From Savitreella phatthalungensis (taxonomy: Eukaryota): a stretch of DNA of 64,000 bases. Shown here piece after piece: positions 9,310-57,305 of this stretch (its first letter is position 1; every line of letters starts with the position of its first letter). The notes under the pieces are model-generated. The model had not been told where the DNA came from and made no database searches. It worked only from the letters and a program-made list of their open reading frames with translations. Made by a program: the position numbers and the translations under genes. Where the stretch lies: contig AP039702.1 of assembly GCA_051599415.1 (NCBI GenBank), positions 124,001 through 188,000 on the forward strand. The letters are read 5' to 3'.

Positions 9310-12042
<2,733 letters not shown>

Positions 12043-13471: not shown

Positions 13472-14474
13472 GATCAAGTGTAAGGCGAGAGAAAGTTGAA
13501 GCAGTGAGTAATATCTTGTCAAGTTTGACAATAGAGTTCAGACAGTCTGTCTGTCTGGCTGGTCAGTGGATGGGTGGGTGTATTGGTCGGTCCAGTGATA
13601 CAGTTCCGGAGTGAGTAGGGAAGAAGACTGTTGGCACGCGTGGGGGTTTGTGGGTGCATAGGTGGATGAAGTGAAAGTGAGTATGAGTGAGTGATCGAGT
13701 GGGTTTGTGGAAGGACGATGCAGCAGCTGGCAGTGAAAGATGGAGTTGAATGGGTAAACCCGTGTACGATCCAGTCAGGTATAAGATAGTAATGTTACAG
13801 TCTAATAAATCTGTGCATTTGTGGTACTGGATATTCCTAATTAATCCTATATGTAACACTTGATCCATTCTTAAATTCGATCCTTACCCAGCTGGTATAT
13901 ACATATGACTCTGAGACTACAGGATCTAGGCTACCAGAATAATTATACAGCTAGAGCTTTGGAAGAGTTCCTTCTTCTACCGCTGACAGTAGGAAGCTCA
14001 GACCTGTAGGCATCGGCGGGATTTCAAAGGACTTTCTCGGGCTAGACCAATTGCATATGAAATTGCCCGAGAGCTATTTTCTCCTGCAGTGAATCAGCCA
14101 AAGTAACTGGAGTCGAAGCGAGTTTGCCTAATTGAGTAATCCATTCTGGACAGGGAGAATCGAATATTCAGATGTATGATTGATTTGAATGAATTTCGTG
14201 GGTGATATCGGGAGGAAGAAGATATGCATTTGCATGCGCATGTGGGATCAGGTGAACGGCAGAGATAGTACATGTATACCGTGCAATTGTGCATATGCTT
14301 GCTCACATAGCCCTAGCTCTATAACCCGTTCTCGAAGACAGGCTTGCAGGACATGATTGACTATGCATAGTAATGCGCTCGATAGTCAGAGGAAGAAAGC
14401 AAATTAGTAATGAGCATTATCGCGAAACACTAAGAAATACACGATCTCAAAGGACAATCCTTGTCCTGTATTGC

Positions 14475-15530
14475 TTACGCAGCTGCAGCCTTTGCTTGCT
14501 GCTCTCCGTCCAAATGTTTGAATGCTTCCGCAGATTCGTTCGAGTCGACTGCCATGCTGTCAAACTCGCTCGTCACCATGCGCTCGAGCTTGGCTGCACG
14601 TGTTGGGGCGTTAATGCTGGATAGATCCATTTTGCGCTCGGGATTTGAGCCTGTAGCGGACTGAGACGACTGCGGGGGGAGTTCTGACTTCTGGGCGCTC
14701 CTGTCCGCTTCTGCGCGCTGCAGGACAGCCAGTGATTCTGAAGGATTCGGACCACTTCCCTGAACAAACTTGTATTGGCCGGACTGTGCTTTTGCTGACT
14801 CTGTACCTTCAGAGTTCTTTGCGCCCTGCTCGTTCTTCTCTTTCTGCTCTCGCATGTGTTCCAAGTAGCGCTGTGAGTATCTGACGCAGCCTTCTGGGTC
14901 GTTTCGAAGCTCAATGATCTGCTCCTGGTTGACGCGACGGTTGAGATCCTGCAGCTGGGCATCTGGGATCGTGCTTGCAAACAGCTTCAGCCCTGACATT
15001 CCGCTCCACTTCTTCATTGCGGGACTGACATTCAATGCCAACCTGAGCGGAAGGCTTGCCGCGTTCGGAATCATCTCGCTGACTGCCAGTGCATACAGTT
15101 CCGTGTCGAGTGAGGCAGCTGTGTGTGACTGGTACGGCGCAGCGAAGATGTGGCTGATCTTCCCGTCTCCCGTGCCTACGTAAGACGTCAAAATCATGTC
15201 TCTGACAGTCATTCTGCGAGCGCTGAAGTTTGGTCGAAGAGAAAAGAGCACATCAAGTGTACCAAGCCGATCCGCGTTGTCGATCGCCTGGAAGTATAGC
15301 TCTTCGAGTGAATGACTGTACACGATTTCCGACACAGCTTTGAAGTTTTTGTCAAAGACCTTATAATGCAGCAATGGCGAGTCCTTGAAGTGCTCATGGG
15401 TATTGCCAGTCGGCTGTGGAGCATACACTCCGCTTTCACCGCGCACTAGCTTGAGCGTCTCTTGTGCAGCCTCAACGGCTTTCCGCACAGTCGTGCTGTC
15501 AGATCTGGTCTGCGATGCTGACTTCTGCAT
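14475..15530 (-). CDS. Hypothetical protein, 351 aa
   Basis: Long ATG-initiated ORF with protein-like composition; no family recognised. Confidence 0.65.
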   Translation of the reverse strand: MQKSASQTRSDSTTVRKAVEAAQETLKLVRGESGVYAPQPTGNTHEHFKDSPLLHYKVFDKNFKAVSEIVYSHSLEELYFQAIDNADRLGTLDVLFSLRPNFSARRMTVRDMILTSYVGTGDGKISHIFAAPYQSHTAASLDTELYALAVSEMIPNAASLPLRLALNVSPAMKKWSGMSGLKLFASTIPDAQLQDLNRRVNQEQIIELRNDPEGCVRYSQRYLEHMREQKEKNEQGAKNSEGTESAKAQSGQYKFVQGSGPNPSESLAVLQRAEADRSAQKSELPPQSSQSATGSNPERKMDLSSINAPTRAAKLERMVTSEFDSMAVDSNESAEAFKHLDGEQQAKAAAA

Positions 15531-15995
15531 CTTTGTGTATGTCGCTGGTCGTCTCGCTTGCGGTACTGTCGCAGAGTCAATTCTGTCAGTCGTTTCTGGG
15601 AAGTTGTGGAGACGCTGTCAACGGTGAACCTTGGTGACCCTTGGGATCCTGTGGAGGGGAGGCTGGCTGTAGAATCAGAGGCGAGCGCGGGGTGCTTGAT
15701 TTTCCTTGGTAACTCCGAGCAAGTATATATTCTTGCATGAGGTCAATTGCTCTAACTCAATTGATCAGATCGATCAATGCCATCGGCCGATTGACGTCTC
15801 GAGTCCAAGCATGTGAAGGGGAATAAACACAATATCAATGAATGACGTAGTCTAGACATTAAATAATGGAGCTCAAAATGTCGATTTTCAGCATATATGA
15901 CTGCCTTTAAGTGTCAAAGCCTAAATTTCGCCAATCGAATGCACGTAGAGTGAGAAATACAATAATTCCTCACCACAAGCACGATTAGACATCTA

Positions 15996-16027
15996 AAGTC
16001 GAAACACGTAAAATTGATCACCTTTAA
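15996..16027 (+). repeat. Left terminal inverted repeat
   Basis: AAGTCGAAACACGTAAAATTGATCACCTTTAA; matches the reverse complement of 17884-17915 at 28/32 positions. Confidence 0.9.
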
Positions 16028-16104
16028 CTTCGCGCAGAAAATAAAGACGCGTCGAACACGTCACCACCTGCCTTCAGAGCAGCCTACTGCCTCCTACAGC
16101 GCCT

Positions 16105-17871
16105 ATGGACGCATTCTATCGCAAGGCATGCCTCCAGGCAGCCTTGAACCACTACGCTGCTTGAAGAGACGGCCAGAAACCGTCTCTTTGTGATGCTGCA
16201 GCAGAGTATAGCGTTTCACCCAGCACTTTGAGGCATCGGCTACTGAACGGCAATAGGACTGCCTCAGAGGCTGCCAGAGAGCGCCAAAAGCTGACAGAAT
16301 CACAGGAGAAGGCTCTGGTAGACATGCTGCACAGAAGGTCTGCAGTAGGCTATCCTATGACTCCTGGGGAGGTCACTAGCCTAGCAGACAAATTTTTTGA
16401 AGCTCGCGGCAGCACAGTGCACCTCGGAATGCGCTGGTTTCCTTCCTTCAAATTACGCCATCCTGACATCCACACAGTGCGCAGCAATTGCATCGACCAC
16501 AGCCGCATGTACGCGGTGGATTCAGCTACTGTGGAGGCCTATTTCAAGATCCTAGGCACCTATCTTCAAGGGGAAGCGATCCTGCCTGAGGATGTGTGGA
16601 ATGCTGACAAATCTGGCCTCATGATGGGCCGTTCCCAGTCCTCCCAGGTGGTGGTTCCACTGCTGCAGAAGGGTAAGAAGCGCGCTGTGGCAGCAGACAA
16701 TGGAGATCGCGAAAGAGTCAGCTGTATAGCCTGTGTTTCTGCTGCAGGTGCCCATTTACAACCAGTTCTGGTGTTCAGGCGCACTCAGGCGAAGAGGGAG
16801 GCCTGTGGAAAGGCTGTGGAGGCTGGGCTGGCGCCTCCTGACGAGGCAAAGTACCTAGGCACGCCTGGAAACGCTGTACGCGTGTTTCACTCGAAAAACG
16901 GCTTCCTCACGTCCCAGTTAATCGTCCAGTGGCTACAGGAGGTCTTCCTGCCTGCCACAGCACAAGATCCACCGAGGACGCGCGTCCTAGTGATCAATGG
17001 CGCCTGCGCTCACGCCACGCACAAGGTCATGTACGAATGCGCGAAAAATGGCGTCAAACTGGTTTATCTGCCTGCCCACAGCTCCCACCTCACACAGCCG
17101 CTCAACCTAGCCGTGTTCTCGCCTTTGAAGAACTACTATGGGCAGGCAGTGAAGGTACTCAGCCGCAGGCTAGCTGGCAGACCCTGGGGGCGCGAAGAAT
17201 TCATCTCGATCTTTCTCGGCGCCTGGCAGAAGGCGCTGAACCGCCAGAACATCACCTCTGGCTTCAGACAAGGAGGTATCTGGCCCTATGACCCACAGGC
17301 GGTGCGCCAAAGCGTGCTCTCCTACAACAATTCAGTCAAACCTGCCTCGGAAGCTGCGAAAAGGCCAGAAAGGCCTGCCTTGGCCACCCTGACCACTCAT
17401 GCAGCCAATACACTGCCCAAAACGGTCAAAGCGACACGCGCAACACTGCAGGCAGCTGGAAAAGAGCAATATGCAGTGCTAGAGCTAGCACTCGAAGAGA
17501 ACGCGCGAAAAGATCGCCTCATTGATGAACTTAGGACTACTGCAGAGCAGCTCCAGTTCATGATCGCCGATAGGGACGAGACTATAGCAGCCCTGCAGGC
17601 CAAGGCCTTGCGTCCTAGGGCAGCCTTCAAGGCACAGCAGCTGGCTAGAGGAGTGGACTGGCTAAAAAGCTTACTCGGCGAAGACTACACAGATATGAGG
17701 TGGCACTGGATCGCAGCAAAGGCGAGGGCTGCTAAAATCGAGCCTAGAGCATGGATAGAGGCACAGGACCAGGCTGCCTTACTTTCAGAGCTAGCGCTGG
17801 TGATTCCATTGAATAGCGAGCAATCTACGGAGAAGGTGTCTTCGAAGAGGCGACAAAAAAAACGTGTGTGA
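16105..17871 (+). pseudogene. Inactivated pogo/Fot1 transposase (HTH_psq + CENP-B-type HTH + DDE_1)
   Basis: ATG 16105 is in frame with ORF 16228..17871 but interrupted by TGA at 16162-16164. Motifs 'WNADKSG', 'VLVINGACAH', 'YLPAHSSHLTQPLNLAVFSPLK' match the family consensus (N.DETG, LL.LDGH.SH, QPLDV..F.PLK) with acidic residues lost. Confidence 0.92.
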
Positions 17872-17883
17872 AATTGATTAATC

Positions 17884-17915
17884 TTAAAGGTGATCAATTC
17901 TAGGTGTAGCGACTT
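17884..17915 (-). repeat. Right terminal inverted repeat
   Basis: Reverse complement AAGTCGCTACACCTAGAATTGATCACCTTTAA, followed by TA. Confidence 0.9.
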
Positions 17916-18852
17916 TAAATTTAAATTCAATTTAGTCGATATTCACACTTTGAAACTGATTTGGTGAAAAGCTAGTCAGATGCGGAACCATCACAGTTTG
18001 ACCGCCAAACTTGAGCAGGTAGCGCTTAAATGAAAACTGTGCAATATCAGCCGACATGCTCACTGTCGCGTTGTCAGTCAACGTGCATCTCTACTTTCTC
18101 CTCATCACGTCGCATTCATAGAGACCCTGGAGGCGTGGTTTTCCAAAGTGATCATCGTAATAAACGGATTGCAATCTCGGCTTCCACGGCACAGTTGTTC
18201 GAGCACATTCACTGGTAGACAGTTCCGAATAATGTGTTTTGCCGTGGCTTCTATGCTTGTGACTGACACAACATTCCGTTGTCAAGGATAGATGATGGTG
18301 GCGACAAGATGGACTTGACGTGAGTTCTACCACCGCTCGTCGTATGAAGTTCTACGCGATTTTTGGTTGATGGTGGATTGGTTGCAAAAGTGTCGTACTT
18401 GTCAAGCATCGAGCTGGTTGAGATTCTTCGATACGATTGCCACTTTCGTGCATATTCATTTGGCATCACATCATTTGTCAAGATTCCTTACCGCACTTGT
18501 CATGCAACGATCTGCCAAATCTGGCTCGTCATTCCAGCAACCACCAAAAACTCCTGAGTTCCTGGGGGAGATAAACTACCTTAAAGCCGCGCCTCATTAA
18601 CAAGCAGTGCGACAAGGATTCACAGCTTGTACCTCGTCTATGCCTCAATTGTCGCAGGTTCAGCACGGACCACGCGGCTTTCGAGAGTGATTGTGCCTGT
18701 CCTTAGGCGACTGTCGATGCATAACTCCACCGGTCTCGGTATCATAATCCTCTTCTGTGCGACGATTCTCATCTCCTAGCGCCAGTTGCGCGAATGTCAA
18801 ATCGAATCATGGTCCCATTCAACCACAGACCATTCGCCGAGCGCTGAATTAC

Positions 18853-20703
18853 ATGAAACAGTCATCCAGCCCTCACGCCAGCATCAGTAGCGTGCGCGGC
18901 CCTGGTGCACCCGAGCGCCGCGCCTCGCTAGCGGACGGGATTGAGCTGAAATCACAGAGTCCTCTCTCGCGCGACGCTGATCACAAGAACGCAGGAAAGC
19001 CACAAATCGATGCACTACCGGTCGCAGAGGGAGAATCTGCCATGGTGGTCGCTGAAGGTATAGCACAAGGATGCGACCTCTCGCAGATGACGGCGCGTGA
19101 TTCACAAGGCACGACCACTCCAGCCAGCGGCGTCATCTCACTGCACGAGAAGCTTACCAAAGCACAGAAGATGTCATTGACATTGCTAGTGGCGATCACA
19201 AGTACATTTTCGCCCATGTCAGCAGTCATGTATGTGCCAGCGATTCCCACGATCGCAAACGACCTCAATAAGAGTATCGCCGCTATCAATCTAAGTGTCA
19301 CTAGCTACATGCTCTTTCAAGGTGTCAGTCCATCTATCTGGGGCTCGTTGACAGATGTCCTTGGTCGGCGGCCAATCTATTTAATCACGTTCGTGGTTTA
19401 CCTGAGTGCTTGCCTCGGCCTAGCTTTCACCACTAATTACGCGGAGCTGATTGTTTTCCGCTGTCTGCAGTCAACAGGCTCAGCTAGTACAATAGCTATC
19501 GGTGCAGGCGTCATTGGCGACATAACAAACCGAAAAGAACGTGGTGGCTATATTGGAATCTATTCAGCCGGAACGCTCGTCGGCAATGCTATTGGTCCCA
19601 TCCTGGGTGGCATCTTTGCACAGACCGTTGGCTGGCATGGAATTTTCTACTTTCTTGTGGCAGCTGCAGGCTTATTCGCAATTTTGCTCCTCCTCATTCT
19701 GCCGGAGACGTTACCATCCAAGCGACCTGTTGCGGGCCAGGATCGAGTCAACATTCTGTCTCGTCCGCTGTTCCCGCTGATAGACACAACGATTGATCCG
19801 GCCTCTATTGTCATGCTTCCATCAGACCTGAAACGTCCAAAGGTAGATATCTTTGGGCCTATTCGGATCATGTTCCATTTGCAAGTGTTCCTCGGTCTGA
19901 CATTCACGGCACTGTACTATCTAGTGTGGCAAGCGTCATTGGTGGCGCTATCGTCGCAGCTGCAAAGACAGTATGGCTTCACCGAGATTCAGATCGGCTT
20001 GGCTTTCATCGCAAACGGCGTCGGTTCAGTGGCCGCATCACTCGTCACGGGGAAGATCCTCAATCACGATTACTTGGTTCAGAAAGCTGCGGAAGAGAAG
20101 ATCTTGAGGGAAGCAGAGCAGAAGAGGCAGGCGAAGCAGCAGACAAGCTTGGACGCTACTGACTCACATGCCAGTACAGGACCTCACGCTGGCCCAACAA
20201 GGTCGCGATCTGTGATCGAGGTTCAGAACATCGAGAAGGCGCGATTGAAGCGGATCCCGCTTGCAGCGCTGGTTTTTATCGGCACTGCGTTTGCATTTGG
20301 CTGGTGTCTTGAGACTCGGGCGTTTGTCGGCTTGCCAATCATTTGGACTTTCTGCATCAGTTTCTGCGCACTGATTGTCATGGCTTCCTTCTCAACCATC
20401 ATCGTAGACTGGTATCCAGGCTCGGGTGCAAGCGCTACAGCAGCGATGAACTTGGCGAGGTGCGTTCTCGGCGCTGGCGGTGTCGCCGTCGTCCAGCCGA
20501 TGATTGATCGTATTGGCGTTGGTTGGACCTTTAGCACCGGAGGGTTCATCTGCGTCGCTTGTCTACCGATGGTCTGGCTGATCGAGCGAATGGCCAGCAA
20601 TCGTTTAAAGCGTGCTGTGCGAGCAGCAAATGACACGGAGTGTGCTGACGCCAATCCAGCCAACGTACAGCAGCAGACGGAGTCGAGCAACATCAAGAAC
20701 TGA
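18853..20703 (+). CDS. MFS drug:H+ antiporter (DHA1/QDR-like)
   Basis: 'MYVPAIPTIA.DL', 'INLSVTSYMLFQG', 'DVLGRRP', 'GAGVIGDI...ERG', 'LPET', about 12 TMs. First ATG at 18853. Confidence 0.92.
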   Translation: MKQSSSPHASISSVRGPGAPERRASLADGIELKSQSPLSRDADHKNAGKPQIDALPVAEGESAMVVAEGIAQGCDLSQMTARDSQGTTTPASGVISLHEKLTKAQKMSLTLLVAITSTFSPMSAVMYVPAIPTIANDLNKSIAAINLSVTSYMLFQGVSPSIWGSLTDVLGRRPIYLITFVVYLSACLGLAFTTNYAELIVFRCLQSTGSASTIAIGAGVIGDITNRKERGGYIGIYSAGTLVGNAIGPILGGIFAQTVGWHGIFYFLVAAAGLFAILLLLILPETLPSKRPVAGQDRVNILSRPLFPLIDTTIDPASIVMLPSDLKRPKVDIFGPIRIMFHLQVFLGLTFTALYYLVWQASLVALSSQLQRQYGFTEIQIGLAFIANGVGSVAASLVTGKILNHDYLVQKAAEEKILREAEQKRQAKQQTSLDATDSHASTGPHAGPTRSRSVIEVQNIEKARLKRIPLAALVFIGTAFAFGWCLETRAFVGLPIIWTFCISFCALIVMASFSTIIVDWYPGSGASATAAMNLARCVLGAGGVAVVQPMIDRIGVGWTFSTGGFICVACLPMVWLIERMASNRLKRAVRAANDTECADANPANVQQQTESSNIKN

Positions 20704-41671: not shown

Positions 41672-42352
41672 TATATTTCTCTTTCCTCGGGTACCAGATG
41701 TGCCTGTGGGGATAGACGCGAGATCTATATGGAGATTTAGGAGGATGCTGAAGTCTCTGGAGGTATTGACTGACCTGCCTTGTGTCTGACGAAGGGCCTT
41801 GTTGTTCTGGTTGGGAATTGACAGTCGACGTAGGAACGTGGAGGATCGTCCTGAATCGATTCAGTTTGTGTGATGTCAGCGATTGTGGCTACAACTTTGA
41901 GATTGATTCCGTTGAAATGATTTCTGGTGTGGCTGTGCTTGGTTGTTCTTTCCAGTTCCAGTTCAAATGTTTCTGTTCATGTTTATTGATATTTGAATGA
42001 ATCAGGCAACTGAGACTCTAGATTCAATTTCTCTACTTTTATTGGATCTCAATTTAGTCCTGTGACCATCGAATCTCCCATTTGGGTCTCTCTGCTTGAA
42101 ACTTCAGCTAAACTCAAAACATAAGCTCAAGCTAGTCAACTTTCACTCGCGTTTCAGCCTCCTGCGCCTTGGTAAACATCGCTTCCAAGAATAAACACTC
42201 GATCACTCTAGTGCACACAGCCCGATGCAGGGAGGGCGATCAAGACTCATATACTCAAAGGCTGGACGCTCGCCAAGCAATCATCCCAAAGCCAGCCAGA
42301 ATCAGACAAGCAGGATCACAGCAACAGACCGGGACTAACGTGGAGACAACAT

Positions 42353-42378
42353 AGAGAAAGAGAGAGAGAGAGAAAGAA
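42353..42378. repeat. GA-rich microsatellite
   Basis: AGAGAAAGAGAGAGAGAGAGAAAGAAA-like run seen directly. Confidence 0.75.
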
Positions 42379-42557
42379 AGGGTCTCATATCTAGCCCTGA
42401 CAACCACTCTACCTTGCACTGTCGCAATTCACACTCGCGTCCACATACTTGCCAATCTATATACTTTGCGCATATCTTGCAAGTCTCACATTGATCACCC
42501 TCTCACAGTCACATCCACGACCGCAACTATGGTGACGAGTAGGTCTCACGATGCGCA

Positions 42558-43811
42558 ATGAGTCCAAGCGATCACGGGACGCGACTAGTCCGACAAAGAA
42601 GTTACCTGCTGGACGACGTACTACACAATCTAGAGGGACGGCCTAGAACATCATCGCCGCGCCGACCTCTTGCTCTTCTTGGCAACTCATCTCCTCAAAC
42701 GCTCAACACGATGGCACCTCAGCTCAAAGCCAATCAGTCTGACTTTCACTTTGCAGTTCCTTCTCTGCCACCTGCAAAGCAAGCGCGACCACGGCTGACG
42801 AGTAAGAATTCAATGCTCTCCCTATGCGTGGAACGATCTCGGTCTCAGTCGCCACGCAAGCGCCGTCGAGTCGGGCAGAACGGTAGCGATGCTTCTAGCA
42901 TTCCCGGCGCCGACAGTGAAATTGAGGATGCCTTGTCACATGATTTTGACGAAATCGTCTCCTTCGATGCAGTTCTCGGCAAACAAGCGCAGATGCGCAC
43001 TGAGCCACTCGCTCCTATTCTTGCCCCGGCACTGGCAAAACCGACCTTGGCGACTACTGAGGTCAGCGTTGGCGCTAGAGGCATCGCCGACGCTCGAAGT
43101 TCACCTTCACAGCGCTTGGGCGAACCCTCGACGCCGCGCGTCCTGCCGCGTGCTCTGAGACCTGCGCGCAGTGCTGTTGATCTCCTCAGACAGTACACTC
43201 ATGAAATTGATCAGCGTGTACATAAACCCGAGGGCTATGCAGTCTTACAACATACACCTGACACTGGCGTCGAGAAGCATACACCTGGTTTCACCGTGCA
43301 TAGACGTCGCACTGACTTGCTCCGGACACCTGTGCTCGATCAAAGCTGCAGTGGTGGCAGTCGGCAGCATCACAATCCCAATGCAAGCAACGACGCGGAC
43401 AGTCCACTGGCACACCGACATGCGCCCGCGTTACGACACGCCAGGTCGCTCGGTGACGGGCTCGGCATTGATTTCGCCCAACTGGGCTCTCCTGAGCTGA
43501 CGAAGTCATTCGTCACTCCGACAAAGCGCGTTCATCCCCACGATCGTGCGACAGCACTTCTATCGCAGTGGTCTCCGCCAACGCCAGACTCCGTGGTCGA
43601 CGGCATCCATCGACGTCAAGCGATAGGCGGCAGCACAGGTTCTGCCGGTGCAGATGTCGCCAATCGATCACTGGACGTATTTCGTGGGGTTGGCACTGCC
43701 TTTATGTCCATGCTGGGATTCGCCGGTAGCAGCAGCCGTTCATCACGGCCACCGACATCGTCGATGACGCGTCATACACGTCTCAGAACGCCTCGCCGCG
43801 TCTATCGATGA
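42558..43811 (+). CDS. Hypothetical Ser/Pro/Arg-rich, probably disordered nuclear protein
   Basis: 417 aa ORF with many SP/TP sites and an NLS-like 'PRKRRR'; no family recognised. Confidence 0.7.
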   Translation: MSPSDHGTRLVRQRSYLLDDVLHNLEGRPRTSSPRRPLALLGNSSPQTLNTMAPQLKANQSDFHFAVPSLPPAKQARPRLTSKNSMLSLCVERSRSQSPRKRRRVGQNGSDASSIPGADSEIEDALSHDFDEIVSFDAVLGKQAQMRTEPLAPILAPALAKPTLATTEVSVGARGIADARSSPSQRLGEPSTPRVLPRALRPARSAVDLLRQYTHEIDQRVHKPEGYAVLQHTPDTGVEKHTPGFTVHRRRTDLLRTPVLDQSCSGGSRQHHNPNASNDADSPLAHRHAPALRHARSLGDGLGIDFAQLGSPELTKSFVTPTKRVHPHDRATALLSQWSPPTPDSVVDGIHRRQAIGGSTGSAGADVANRSLDVFRGVGTAFMSMLGFAGSSSRSSRPPTSSMTRHTRLRTPRRVYR

Positions 43812-46756: not shown

Positions 46757-48187
46757 ATGGCAGACTGCACCGATGATGTTGCGGGTCACGGCGGGATGAT
46801 CGATCTTCCCGAAGAACTTCTTCTAGAAATAGTCAAGCAGCTGGATCTGTTTGGTCTTCTCTCTTTTGCCCAAATTTGCAGACGCTTCCGAAGGCTGATC
46901 GCCACGGATACAGTGTCGAAAGACCTGCTCATCAAACGATTTAGATACACAGAGTACAACTTCCGGCACAAAGCCAGGCTAAGGCAAAATCAATTTGACG
47001 TACTTATCGACAATCTCTCGAGCTATGCTGCGCTTTATCACCGCAAGGCATTCGGGTATGCTGCCGCTTACCAAAGCGGTGGGCTTCCTGCGGCATATGC
47101 GGAAGATCTAGGGTTGACCCCACGACACGGCCATCGAGCGACAGTGTCCGGGCATCTCGTGGCATTCTGGTACTCTGGGAAGAGTATTGCGCAGGTATAT
47201 GACCTGCAACGCAACAAAGCCCTAGCAAGTTGCAAGCTGCCTGCAGGGTTGTTCATCAGGGAGTGTGTCTTTCGCGACCAGGAAGACCTGCTAGTCCTGA
47301 CGAGCAGATCATCTTCGCAAAGCGTGCTGAGCTACGACGTCGCGACGGGTGACCTCGCGGGAGTATTCAAGATGAAGTGCTCGGAGCTCATCAACATCTC
47401 CTACAAGTTTGGCTGGATTCTGTGTGATTGGGCGAAGAAACCGGACAATCGTCGTCTGATGACACTCATCCACTTCGATTCAGGGCTTTACGGGAGTGAA
47501 CGTGTGGACGTTCCAAGCGGTGAAATTCTACATTCGACTGTCGTCATGAAGTCATCCTCGGAAGACTACATATTTGCACCATTCTGCGTGGACGACTGGG
47601 ATAGTGGGCCTGTCTTATACGATTGTATCGATCGAAAACGACATCAACTTCGGCTATCTAGTCTCCCAAGATTTCAAAGATCGGATCAAATTTATGAGGG
47701 ATGGGCAGTCGAGAAAGAGTTGTCGACTCGCGAACTGGCAGATGAACGGCATAAGCTTGTGCCAGACCCTTGGTGGCAGGTGATGCCGACGCGGCTGCTC
47801 AGTGGTATCGACCTTAACTGTTCGATTTCGCTTGGTTGGCAAAGCGATGAGCACGCAAATCCACTGTTTGACATTGAAGAATCGGACGACATTGTCTCCA
47901 TCAACGCCGGACTCTACATCAAAGCATATGAGCCGAACACTCGGTGGATCGATCATCAACAGCCGGAAAAACCAACGGCCAATTTGTTTGATCAGGTCGG
48001 TCGACTGAGAGCACCGGGCGAAGGAGATAGCAGCGAACTTGTCTACTCGATGCTGCTCGCCTCGTACAGCTGGGTCGTCGTAGTTTACACGACAGGATTC
48101 AAGGCTTACAAGATTCATCGCCTGGGCGACTCAAATTTCCAACCCTCAAGGCCCGAGCTTGTGGAACGACCCAATGCCAGCAAATGA
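46757..48187 (+). CDS. F-box protein
   Basis: N-terminal F-box 'IDLPEELLLEIVKQLDLFGLLSFAQICRRFRRLI'; C-terminal region unrecognised and beta-rich. Confidence 0.85.
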   Translation: MADCTDDVAGHGGMIDLPEELLLEIVKQLDLFGLLSFAQICRRFRRLIATDTVSKDLLIKRFRYTEYNFRHKARLRQNQFDVLIDNLSSYAALYHRKAFGYAAAYQSGGLPAAYAEDLGLTPRHGHRATVSGHLVAFWYSGKSIAQVYDLQRNKALASCKLPAGLFIRECVFRDQEDLLVLTSRSSSQSVLSYDVATGDLAGVFKMKCSELINISYKFGWILCDWAKKPDNRRLMTLIHFDSGLYGSERVDVPSGEILHSTVVMKSSSEDYIFAPFCVDDWDSGPVLYDCIDRKRHQLRLSSLPRFQRSDQIYEGWAVEKELSTRELADERHKLVPDPWWQVMPTRLLSGIDLNCSISLGWQSDEHANPLFDIEESDDIVSINAGLYIKAYEPNTRWIDHQQPEKPTANLFDQVGRLRAPGEGDSSELVYSMLLASYSWVVVVYTTGFKAYKIHRLGDSNFQPSRPELVERPNASK

Positions 48188-49170
48188 GGCGTTACTTTGG
48201 ATGAAGGAATGTAAATAGCGGATGTACTTTGACATAGCTCTCTGGACGGGGCACATGTGGCATGCTCGCGGCAGGTACCCAACTGTGTGATATACCTGCA
48301 TAATTTCATCCTCCATCTGCGAGCGTCACCAAATGGACAGGTGCTGATCATTGTTCTCTCGTCGAGTTATGCAAATCTAATTGCAAAGGGGGAGCCAAGC
48401 CGTTGCAAGCGAGGGATGGAATTCTCCTACGAACCGTTGAAGCGATGGACTCGAATCAATGTCACAGTCAGCATAGGAGACGATACAGCTAAACATGATA
48501 GGGCCGTAGAACGAGGAAGTCATGGCCAGCAAGAGTCATCACATACCTGATAGACCGACCTTGTACACCTGAAAGGCAAACAGAATCTGTCCATGCATAC
48601 GTACTACTGAGTAGATCGATCCGCGCGGCAAACTTTGATTCTATAATTAGCGCCAAGCAAGTAATCTATCTGATCCACTCCACAAGCGTTGCCTGAAATA
48701 GATTTCAATCTGATTCGAGTGGTGACGATATTCTCTCGGCAAAAATGCTCAGTCAATCCACAGCAGCTGTAAATCCAGAGTAAAATTACCCACTCAAGCT
48801 CAAAAGTCAACAAGAAATCTATTCAGGCTGAAAGGTTTAGATGCCGTGGATGTTTGGTTCTCAGCTAAATTACTCATTTGACCAGAACTAATCAACCTGA
48901 GTTGTAATCTTTGAGCCTTACAAGTGGAACTTCAGTAAATGTCAATTTATTCACAGACCTCAGCGGCAGTAACCATAGTTTCAACTAAATCCACACCAAC
49001 CCACAAACTGTGCAGAAGAGATCTCTTGAGCGATATATGCATGCAAAGTAGTGTCAGTACTCTTCCATCTACATACTGCAGAGCTCCAGCTAGAGTAAAG
49101 TTAAGTTTACCCTTTGATTACTACGTGCACAGCAACTAATTCACAGATCATCAGAGCAACAACAATTACG

Positions 49171-49194
49171 CTGCACTGCACTGCACTGCACTGC
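49171..49194. repeat. (CTGCA)n pentanucleotide repeat, about 5 units
   Basis: ctgcactgcactgcactgcactgc upstream of the MscS gene. Confidence 0.8.
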
Positions 49195-49620
49195 CTAATA
49201 GTCAATCAACCACCGTCATCAGGGGTGGCATTCACATCCACATACAGTATATACCATCCTTTCTACCCATCATCCCTGACACATTCTTCAGCAAAGGTCC
49301 AAGTATTCACCCAAGATTGTATTCACTCGCTCGACTTGCCTGAAATCTAGACAAGCAGTCACAGTAACGAGGAGACGCAGTCAGTAGTCCACAAACAGCG
49401 TTGCACACAGGGTCGAGGGTAAGGAAGAATCAGGTCACGCACACGCAGTCGAGCTGCTAGATCCCCTGACAACCTCGTGAGCTTTCCGATACATCTCATC
49501 GGATCGTCATCCACGGTATTCTGACAAGCAGGTCACGAGATCACCATCGACCTCAGATCCACCATTTCATCCGAAAGCTCCTCCGGCCTTTCATCCTTCT
49601 GAATTCATCAAAATCCAGTC

Positions 49621-55716: not shown

Positions 55717-57305
55717 GGAGCTGTCCAAGCGTCAATCGAATGAGCTAGTTCAAGACGTGCGTCACACTGGGCGTGCGCTGCAATGTGACAAAGAGAGCAC
55801 AAGAAGGTAATAACCGTTAAGGATACGGTAGGAGAGAATCTGGAAGGGGGTTTAGTATCTCTGTTGCCGTGGTGCGGGATGCTAATAAGATTGTTCTATA
55901 GTATCGATCTGGTGTGCATGGCCATACACTACACTGCATGAACATGATCAATCGATCGATCGAATGATTTGTGGATATGGATGCACGTCTTACATGCGAC
56001 TTACTTGAATTCGGTTTACCCGGTCGTTCGTATATGAATCTGTACAGTAGATTGAATGCACGTCAGAACTGAATTCCACAACCAGAAATCAGATCCAGAA
56101 GGCAGTATATATATAATCTATGAGATAGTATTGGACGCACGTGAGCATGAACTCTTACAAGAGCACACGTATACAGATCTTTAGCTTAATATTCTAGAGC
56201 ATTATTAAGCTACAGATCCTAGAGCATTATGTATTCACTCACTTGACACAGATACTATCCCTCCTAGGGCTAATTCGATCGATGACCTGCACACCCAGTC
56301 CTCTACCGAAGCCTTTGACAAGTGATGTTGTGATTGGTTATTCTGATGCAGTCATTTAAAGTGGCTTTATGCCATACCATTCGCTGTAGATGTCCAGTAT
56401 CAGCTTCAGCATCACTATTTCATGTAGTCATCCAATCACTATCAGTGCAAGTATGGAGGCTTTTGACGCTTCAGCTTCTCTCTCACAGAGTCAGAAGAAT
56501 GAAGATGTCATGGGGACGGAAATAGTACCTCAACTATGGAAACTAGAATTTCCGAAGAAGGATGAATAAGCTTCTTCCAATTGAGATCGACAATTTCAAT
56601 GTAAAAAGTTTTTCTTTCGAACTTTCTTTCATTCCGGTCGGCCACAGTAATTGTCATTCAGCCAAGGCCAATGCAAAGTATTTTGAACCTTTGCAGATTC
56701 AGGTTAGATTCCGTCTCGCGAGTGCCGAACTCTTGGGTCGGCCGCAGCAGCAAGAGCCCTCCAAGGTCAGTCATCATCACTACAATCAGCCACACTCACC
56801 AGAACCACTCAAGATTTGCATCTTTTAGCCAGTTAGCCTGAGTGGTTCTGCATACTGTTGAATACTCATGAGATTTCTGTAAACGATTTCTGGATGAGCA
56901 CAGCACAAAGCTTGAGACACTTAGTATTTCATTTCAAAGACGCCACAGCGGCAATTAGCAGTCAACTCCACCAGCAAGGTTGCGCCTACAGTCACTAAGC
57001 TCTCACTACAGGGTGATCTCTGCTCGAATTCACGCCCAGAACTGGGAAGTGAGCAAGTGCAAACTGAACTGGGAACGTGAGGCGAAGCTCTTTTTGAAAA
57101 ATGCGTCATCGGCAGTATCCCAATTCCTCTCAATCTAGAATGAATCGATCCGCGGCAATTCATACGCAGCTCAAATCACAACATCAGACCATCACCCAGA
57201 TCAGTCATTCACATTACTAACACACCGAGTACCCAGACAGCCATATAAGAACACTACAATTCTAGCATTCCGCAGTAACATCTTCACACAATACATACAC
57301 ACATC

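Follow-up and report, generated by a model that had tools for sequence, protein, structure and literature searches.

We analysed a 64,000-nucleotide stretch of DNA from Savitreella phatthalungensis (contig AP039702.1, positions 124,001 to 188,000; hereafter the window) and found at 15996-17915 an element of the pogo/Fot1 type (DDE_1, Tc1/mariner superfamily), a dead copy of a cut-and-paste transposon that is repeated in this organism. The lesions in its transposase are probably the product of ordinary neutral decay with a modest bias towards transitions at CpG. An earlier reading of the same DNA, here called the original prediction, had ascribed them to a repeat-induced point mutation (RIP)-like or CpG/TpCpG-targeted repeat-mutation system, an interpretation that the evidence below does not support. 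Coordinates are positions in the window, and residue numbers (148, 149, 278 and 314) refer to the 568-amino-acid frame downstream of an in-frame TGA. The labels Fot1 and pogo are family names that we take to be appropriate; none of the searches here returned them.

Other copies of the element were examined in contigs of public sequencing runs X1, X2, X3 and X5 aligned on 15001-19000, X1 and X2 being from the same sample. The element was placed at 15996-17915, with TA on each side, because similarity among copies extends from 15994 to 17917-17923. It is bounded by terminal inverted repeats at 15996-16027 (plus strand; repeat-finder arm 15991-16027) and 17884-17915 (minus strand; repeat-finder arm 17884-17920). 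The two arms are 37 nt each and 86% complementary, and local alignment gave the same arms. The TA target-site duplications, which have no strand, were read in the sequence at 15994-15995, where copy similarity begins at 15994 (loose ends of three X2 contigs), and at 17916-17917, where it stops at 17917-17923 (loose ends in X1, X2 and X3). The element has both the terminal inverted repeats and the TA target-site duplication that mark the pogo/Fot1 type. Inside lies the transposase reading frame (16105-17871, plus strand), with 588 codons, a final stop and one interruption.

The 568-amino-acid frame matched PF03184 (DDE_1) in Pfam over residues 185-367 (E = 1.7e-25; score 90.1 bits, with the cut-off at 22). 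A putative, weakly matching helix-turn-helix (HTH) of the Tc5/CENP-B type precedes it: HTH_Tnp_Tc5 scored 19.9 bits, under its cut-off of 22.2, and the Pfam scan reported no HTH_psq match in the transposase. The N-terminus can be aligned to the S-R-AA...STL..R motif that relatives carry, and the nearest Atlas clusters are Ascomycota proteins with DDE_1, HTH_Tnp_Tc5 and HTH_psq. Among 1.84 billion representative proteins, a full HMMER pass identified 12,759 relatives (E ≤ 0.001). The closest, P0001 from an ENA contig, is 64% identical, 416 amino acids long and N-terminally cut. A protein search at near-full length gave four matches, the top one 64% identical. No short protein fragments of the family were found at E ≤ 1e-8 among 4143 candidates, and no additional copies or relatives appeared as DNA in the metagenome, genome or viral contig collections searched. 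A domesticated, catalytically dead CENP-B-like gene was also considered; it is rejected because the element is repeated, has inverted ends and a TA duplication, and carries a stop codon.

The lesions lie where the original prediction had placed them, in codons that read as it described. An ATG at 16105 is followed by an in-frame TGA at 16162-16164 (codon 20), after which the frame runs uninterrupted through 568 codons to 17871, giving no evidence of a frameshift. On the plus strand the codons are GCT TGA (16159-16164), CTT TGT (16186-16191), GAC AAA (16606-16611), ATC AAT (16993-16998) and CTC AAC (17101-17106), and every named lesion lies in a TpG or CpA dinucleotide. The affected positions were compared with family alignments, counting at each column only the relatives with a residue there. 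TGT at 16189-16191 places Cys at an HTH position occupied by Arg in 20 of 24 relatives. At 16606-16611, D148 is kept (D in 39/39), and the Glu beside it (E in 39/39) is K149, in NADKSG. AAT at 16996-16998 turns the second catalytic Asp (D in 39 of 40 relatives, and in P0001) into N278, in VING, and AAC at 17104-17106 turns the third (D in 40/40) into N314, giving QPLN for QPLD. The catalytic triad, D-D-D when intact, reads D, N, N in the window copy. The two Asn and the Lys are departures from the family, as had been proposed, and are not residues shared by its relatives: P0001 retains IVDG and QPLD, and the family columns hold D or E.

Each disabling change, and probably the HTH Cys as well, had also been attributed to a single transition at a CpG, which proved correct for one site and doubtful for another. 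Direct comparison with other copies reached only 17104 among the lesions, within the 40 of 430 variant places that were listed, and there it confirmed a G>A change in TCGA that is private to the window copy: G is carried by contigs accounting for 867.8 of a depth of 1002.1 in X1 and 1182.7 of 1224.8 in X2. With G there, most other copies encode the third catalytic Asp, and it is the window copy that is inactive. For 16162, 16189, 16609 and 16996 we infer the ancestral bases from aligned relatives, with CGT>TGT the likely change at the HTH Arg, where R>C is necessarily at CpG by the genetic code. A CGA origin of the stop is unsupported, since its column in 24 relatives is hydrophobic (I6 Y5 V4 L4 C3 A1), with Arg absent among the listed residues, and the window copy has a 3-residue insertion beside it; TGG, TGY or TTA would be equally possible precursors. 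All three G>A lesions at codon position 1 are preceded by C, which would occur by chance with p ~0.026 given a third-position C fraction of 0.297 in the open reading frame (ORF); this pattern is suggestive, but post hoc.

The source organism carries the element as a repeated family whose members have diverged. In X1 the flanks were covered at a depth of 49-55 on single long contigs and the interior of the element at a summed depth of 586-1476, a figure that cannot be read as a copy number and serves only to support repetition and divergence. The 191 contig pieces from X1 included 69 at least 99% alike, 57 at 95-99%, 41 at 90-95% and 24 below 90%, and related pieces were present in the runs of two other organisms (22 in X3 and 7 in X5). 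Neither blastn nor tblastn found a second copy within the 64-kb window, and further transposon domains were absent from its 17 long ORFs and from the 41 short ORFs scanned, of 44 in ORF-poor stretches.

Comparison of the window copy with the other copies revealed a mixed spectrum of differences. Transitions and transversions stood at 221:100 in X1, 151:59 in X2, 150:76 in X3 and 38:15 in X5, a ratio of 2.0-2.6 across the four runs (about 2.2), with about one third of the variant places being transversions. The transitions in X1 ran both ways, with 139 places at which C or G in the window corresponds to T or A elsewhere and 82 of the reverse. Other copies contain 1-bp indels at 16174, 16176 and 16545, deletions of 3 and 6 nt, and internal skips of 107, 587 and 95 nt. 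Taking a change as private where the majority of other copies disagree with the window copy in X1 as well as in X2, and assigning its probable direction by that majority, we counted 28 majority-supported private coding changes of the window copy. These fall 8/9/11 on codon positions 1/2/3, and the spread therefore points to drift in a dead gene.

Within this mixed spectrum, transitions at CpG are over-represented. The part of the original prediction that concerns CpG holds up reasonably well, the disabling substitutions being transitions in CpG-derived dinucleotides on both strands. Among the listed variant places, 6 of 14 private GC>AT transitions are at CpG on a strict count, or 7 of 15 if 16489 is included, corresponding to a per-site odds ratio of 3.1-3.6 (p 0.04-0.017). 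The listed CpG changes comprise seven transitions and one transversion (16536), and the transitions affect both strands, with four C>T and three G>A. The per-site excess is modest, about 3-fold, and rests on 14-15 events.

Canonical RIP is recognised by a TpA/ApT of at least about 0.89 together with a (CpA+TpG)/(ApC+GpT) of at most about 1.03, accompanied by AT enrichment. The element gave 0.85-0.89 and 1.55-1.63, respectively, without AT enrichment, and the counts above lack the one-directional, near-exclusive C>T/G>A character of canonical RIP. A homology-triggered RIP-like mutator with a CpG or TpCpG preference, operating in an early-branching ascomycete lineage, is a process that these indices would miss. 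It would agree with the two-strand distribution of the CpG transitions and with the TpCpG context of five of the seven (p 0.015), and excerpts of PMC7882544 place RIP-pathway homologues in some Taphrinomycotina without canonical RIP. We nonetheless regard such a mutator as very improbable, given the share of transversions, the indels and deletions, the 69 of 191 X1 pieces still at least 99% alike, the unchanged GC content and the 99 CpGs that remain in the element. Among these 99 are 48 TCG/CGA views. TCG accounts for 24% of the remaining CpGs, against 31% in host ORFs, and T precedes C overall in 22% against 27%; TCG has not been specifically lost, because its share follows the general T-before-C share.

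The composition of the element was then set against that of its surroundings, and the expectation of low CpG relative to host genes held. The observed/expected (o/e) ratio of CpG is 0.66 in the element ORF and 0.69 over the whole element, compared with 1.01±0.11 in 24 host ORFs (minimum 0.78), which places the element ORF at z -3.3. Across 1165 windows of equal size taken elsewhere, the lowest value was 0.74, so that none reached the level of the element. GC content does not explain these differences, because it is 0.55 in the element and in host ORFs alike. By codon-position pair, CpG o/e is 0.89/0.53/0.63 in the element and 1.26/0.90/0.99 in the host, a similar drop at all three. Host DNA outside ORFs has a pooled CpG o/e of 0.86 (17.2 kb), with 5 of 15 segments of at least 600 nt at or under 0.76; the element is lower in CpG than this non-ORF DNA, but not in a class of its own. 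Four non-ORF stretches (13538-14477, 41861-42542, 48185-49602 and 55732-57278) have a CpG o/e of 0.62-0.76 and a GC of 0.44-0.46, coding sequence being near 1.0. Such CpG-poor stretches hint at a mild, genome-wide decay of CpG in unconstrained DNA.

One explanation for this depletion is that the host methylates CpG in transposon copies, and that spontaneous deamination of 5-methylcytosine (5mC) then turns CpG into TpG/CpA more quickly there than in other DNA, a process that would deplete CpG and by chance have struck C-preceded catalytic codons. The o/e values of the element relative to both host ORFs and non-ORF DNA, the even reduction over the three codon-position pairs and the ~3-fold transition excess are all consistent with it. 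Host genes are undepleted, so any methylation would be restricted to repeats, which PMC13297926 describes, in the part consulted, as the usual fungal pattern. In excerpts of two papers, Saitoella complicata and Taphrina deformans are reported to possess homologues of DIM-2 and RID (van Wyk et al. 2021, PMC7882544), and T. deformans to possess UHRF1, DNMT4 and CDCA7F (Funabiki et al. 2023, PMC10538959). In transposons of Agaricomycotina and Ustilaginomycotina, an excess of CpG transitions has likewise been ascribed to 5mC deamination, according to passages of PMC3318451. Against this stand the small size of the excess (14-15 events), the five host non-ORF segments as CpG-poor as the element, a weak excess of TpG+CpA, and the documented mutability of CpG in yeasts that lack 5mC (PMC4704713, in part). 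We rate repeat methylation as a possibility to be held tentatively.

The yeast data bear directly on what the excess requires. The sections of Behringer & Hall 2016 (PMC4704713) drawn on here report highly mutable CpG sites in Schizosaccharomyces pombe without 5mC, and, citing Zhu et al. 2014 and Farlow et al. 2015, recount an enrichment of C>T at CpG in the same species (Farlow et al.) and C>T-prone TCG and CCG in Saccharomyces cerevisiae. Because yeasts show such mutability without 5mC, a CpG/TCG excess of about 3-fold needs neither methylation nor repeat targeting, and the CpG pattern of the element fits 5mC deamination in repeats and methylation-independent mutability equally well.

Alternatively, the family could have brought a CpG-poor composition with it, through its own codon usage or from a former host after horizontal transfer. 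At the listed sites, majority letters would restore about 6-7 CpGs and remove 2, leaving the family consensus near 0.7. Related copies in the runs of other organisms (X3 and X5), the 64% identical protein from an unrelated ENA contig, and unusually high GpC and CpT/ApG in the element are also compatible with an imported composition. The GC content, however, equals that of the host, and private CpG losses are directly visible on the window copy, and we judge inheritance of the whole pattern to be unlikely.

Several observations count against neutral decay as a complete account. The CpG o/e of the element (0.69) falls below that of non-ORF DNA (0.86), corresponding by hand arithmetic to ~99 CpGs observed against ~123 expected, or ~2 standard deviations, and this gap may reflect an extra process acting on the repeat. 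Only 2 of 23 Asp codons in the element are preceded by C, as opposed to 238 of 696 in host ORFs (p 0.012). TpCpG makes up 5 of the 7 listed CpG transitions where a fraction of 0.26 is expected (p 0.015; strict count 4/6, p 0.04). TpG+CpA is only weakly in excess (1.27 against 1.20, z 0.9), which would fit an inherited CpG-poor composition too. Finally, the spectrum estimate is coarse, with 40 of 430 variant places listed and direction assigned by majority.

Neutral decay with a modest CpG bias remains the account that we favour. The lesions would have arisen once selection on this copy ended, and the copy is disabled by the nonsense codon, the loss of two of the three catalytic Asp residues and changes to the Glu beside the first Asp and to the HTH Arg. 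The point mutations would represent a normal mix of transitions and transversions with a ~3-fold per-site excess of C>T/G>A at CpG, and the CpG signature would reflect spontaneous deamination of cytosine or 5-methylcytosine, not enzyme-driven repeat-induced hypermutation. Taken as a whole, the original prediction was largely right about the lesions, with the origin of the stop as the exception; its interpretation as genome defence finds no support in the two-way changes, the indels, the equal GC and the negative RIP indices.

To place the host, we used the MCM3 gene at 9310-12042. Its best named match is Saitoella coloradoensis (65% identical); identity is 59-63% to Pezizomycetes and Pneumocystis and 70-83% to five environmental or Logan proteins. 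A maximum likelihood tree was built from 25 rows hand-picked from 120 listed matches, among which Taphrina, Protomyces, Neolecta and Schizosaccharomyces have no rows. The window sequence falls in a 100/100 clade with the five environmental or Logan sequences only, outside the 100/100 Pezizomycotina clade and outside both Saccharomycotina rows. Support of 63/85 for its placement relative to Saitoella and Pneumocystis is too low to order them. This single-gene tree supports the suggestion that the host is an early-diverging ascomycete. The host genome is also small, gene-dense and intron-poor.

It is rather unlikely, on present evidence, that an ascomycete clade lying outside both Pezizomycotina and Saccharomycotina targets its transposon copies specifically for cytosine methylation or for TpCpG-preferring deamination. 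If it did, this activity would amount to a slow, CpG-restricted mutation of repeats invisible to canonical RIP indices, and would explain DIM-2/RID homologues without detectable RIP in some Taphrinomycotina. In the excerpted text of van Wyk et al. 2021 (PMC7882544), RIP was undetectable in the three Taphrinomycotina genomes examined, and our literature search, judged on titles and abstract openings, yielded none that deals with CpG-biased mutation of repeats in Taphrinomycotina. Reports from these lineages (Saitoella, Taphrina) have so far been of homologous genes only, with no mutational footprint; were the CpG bias to prove both repeat-specific and 5mC-dependent, a deep ascomycete lineage would be shown to direct cytosine methylation or mutation at transposons. 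For now, the element is an ordinary dead transposon copy, with a CpG pattern that general yeast mutational biases could account for. It is chiefly of value as a member of a multi-copy, moderately diverged family suited to genome-wide analysis of mutation context.

The element sits in intergenic space between a gene without assigned function and a major facilitator superfamily transporter gene. The left neighbour, an ORF at 14475-15617 (minus strand, 380 amino acids), had no Pfam match at 1e-5, nor did an ORF at 42543-43811 (plus strand, 422 amino acids). In X3, a single contig connects 15862 with 17940, passing over 2077 nt in which the element lies, and could represent an empty site in a related organism; the shorter side of this junction spans 28 letters, under the 30-letter caution, and it was not used as evidence. 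Coverage in X2 is very uneven, with a depth of 1163 on the left-flank contig (15001-15846) and 145 on the right (17889-19000), both being ~50 in X1. At 17467-17468 and 17474-17475, seven bases apart, the window copy has CA where most other copies have AG, paired differences that may reflect an alignment effect or a small conversion tract.

Among known systems, the element resembles pogo/Fot1-type fungal transposons, with which it shares the DDE_1 domain, the positions of the WN-DE-G, DG-SH and QPLD motifs, terminal inverted repeats, a TA duplication and many copies; it differs in its stop, in the Asn that replaces two of the catalytic Asp residues and in the Lys that replaces the motif Glu. 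With canonical RIP of Pezizomycotina it has in common C>T/G>A changes in a repeated element and both nonsense and missense lesions, whereas canonical RIP is CpA-biased and the element has negative indices, no AT enrichment and a mixed spectrum. The TpCpG hypermutation of repeats that excerpts of Horns et al. 2012 (PMC3318451) describe in Pucciniomycotina resembles our case in its CpG transitions in transposon copies, with a 5' T in 5 of the 7 listed here. Our case departs from that process in the small size of its excess, in the frequency of transversions, indels and reverse transitions, in showing no depletion specific to TCG, and in its host, an ascomycete outside Pezizomycotina. The comparison with methylation-independent CpG mutability in yeast (PMC4704713, in the sections cited) is between mutation accumulation lines and paralogous copies, and the CpG changes in the S. 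pombe lines of Behringer & Hall are mainly C>A where ours are mostly transitions. What the two share is a modest elevation of mutation at CpG, TCG included; in the yeasts, ascomycetes without detectable 5mC, it involves no repeat targeting.

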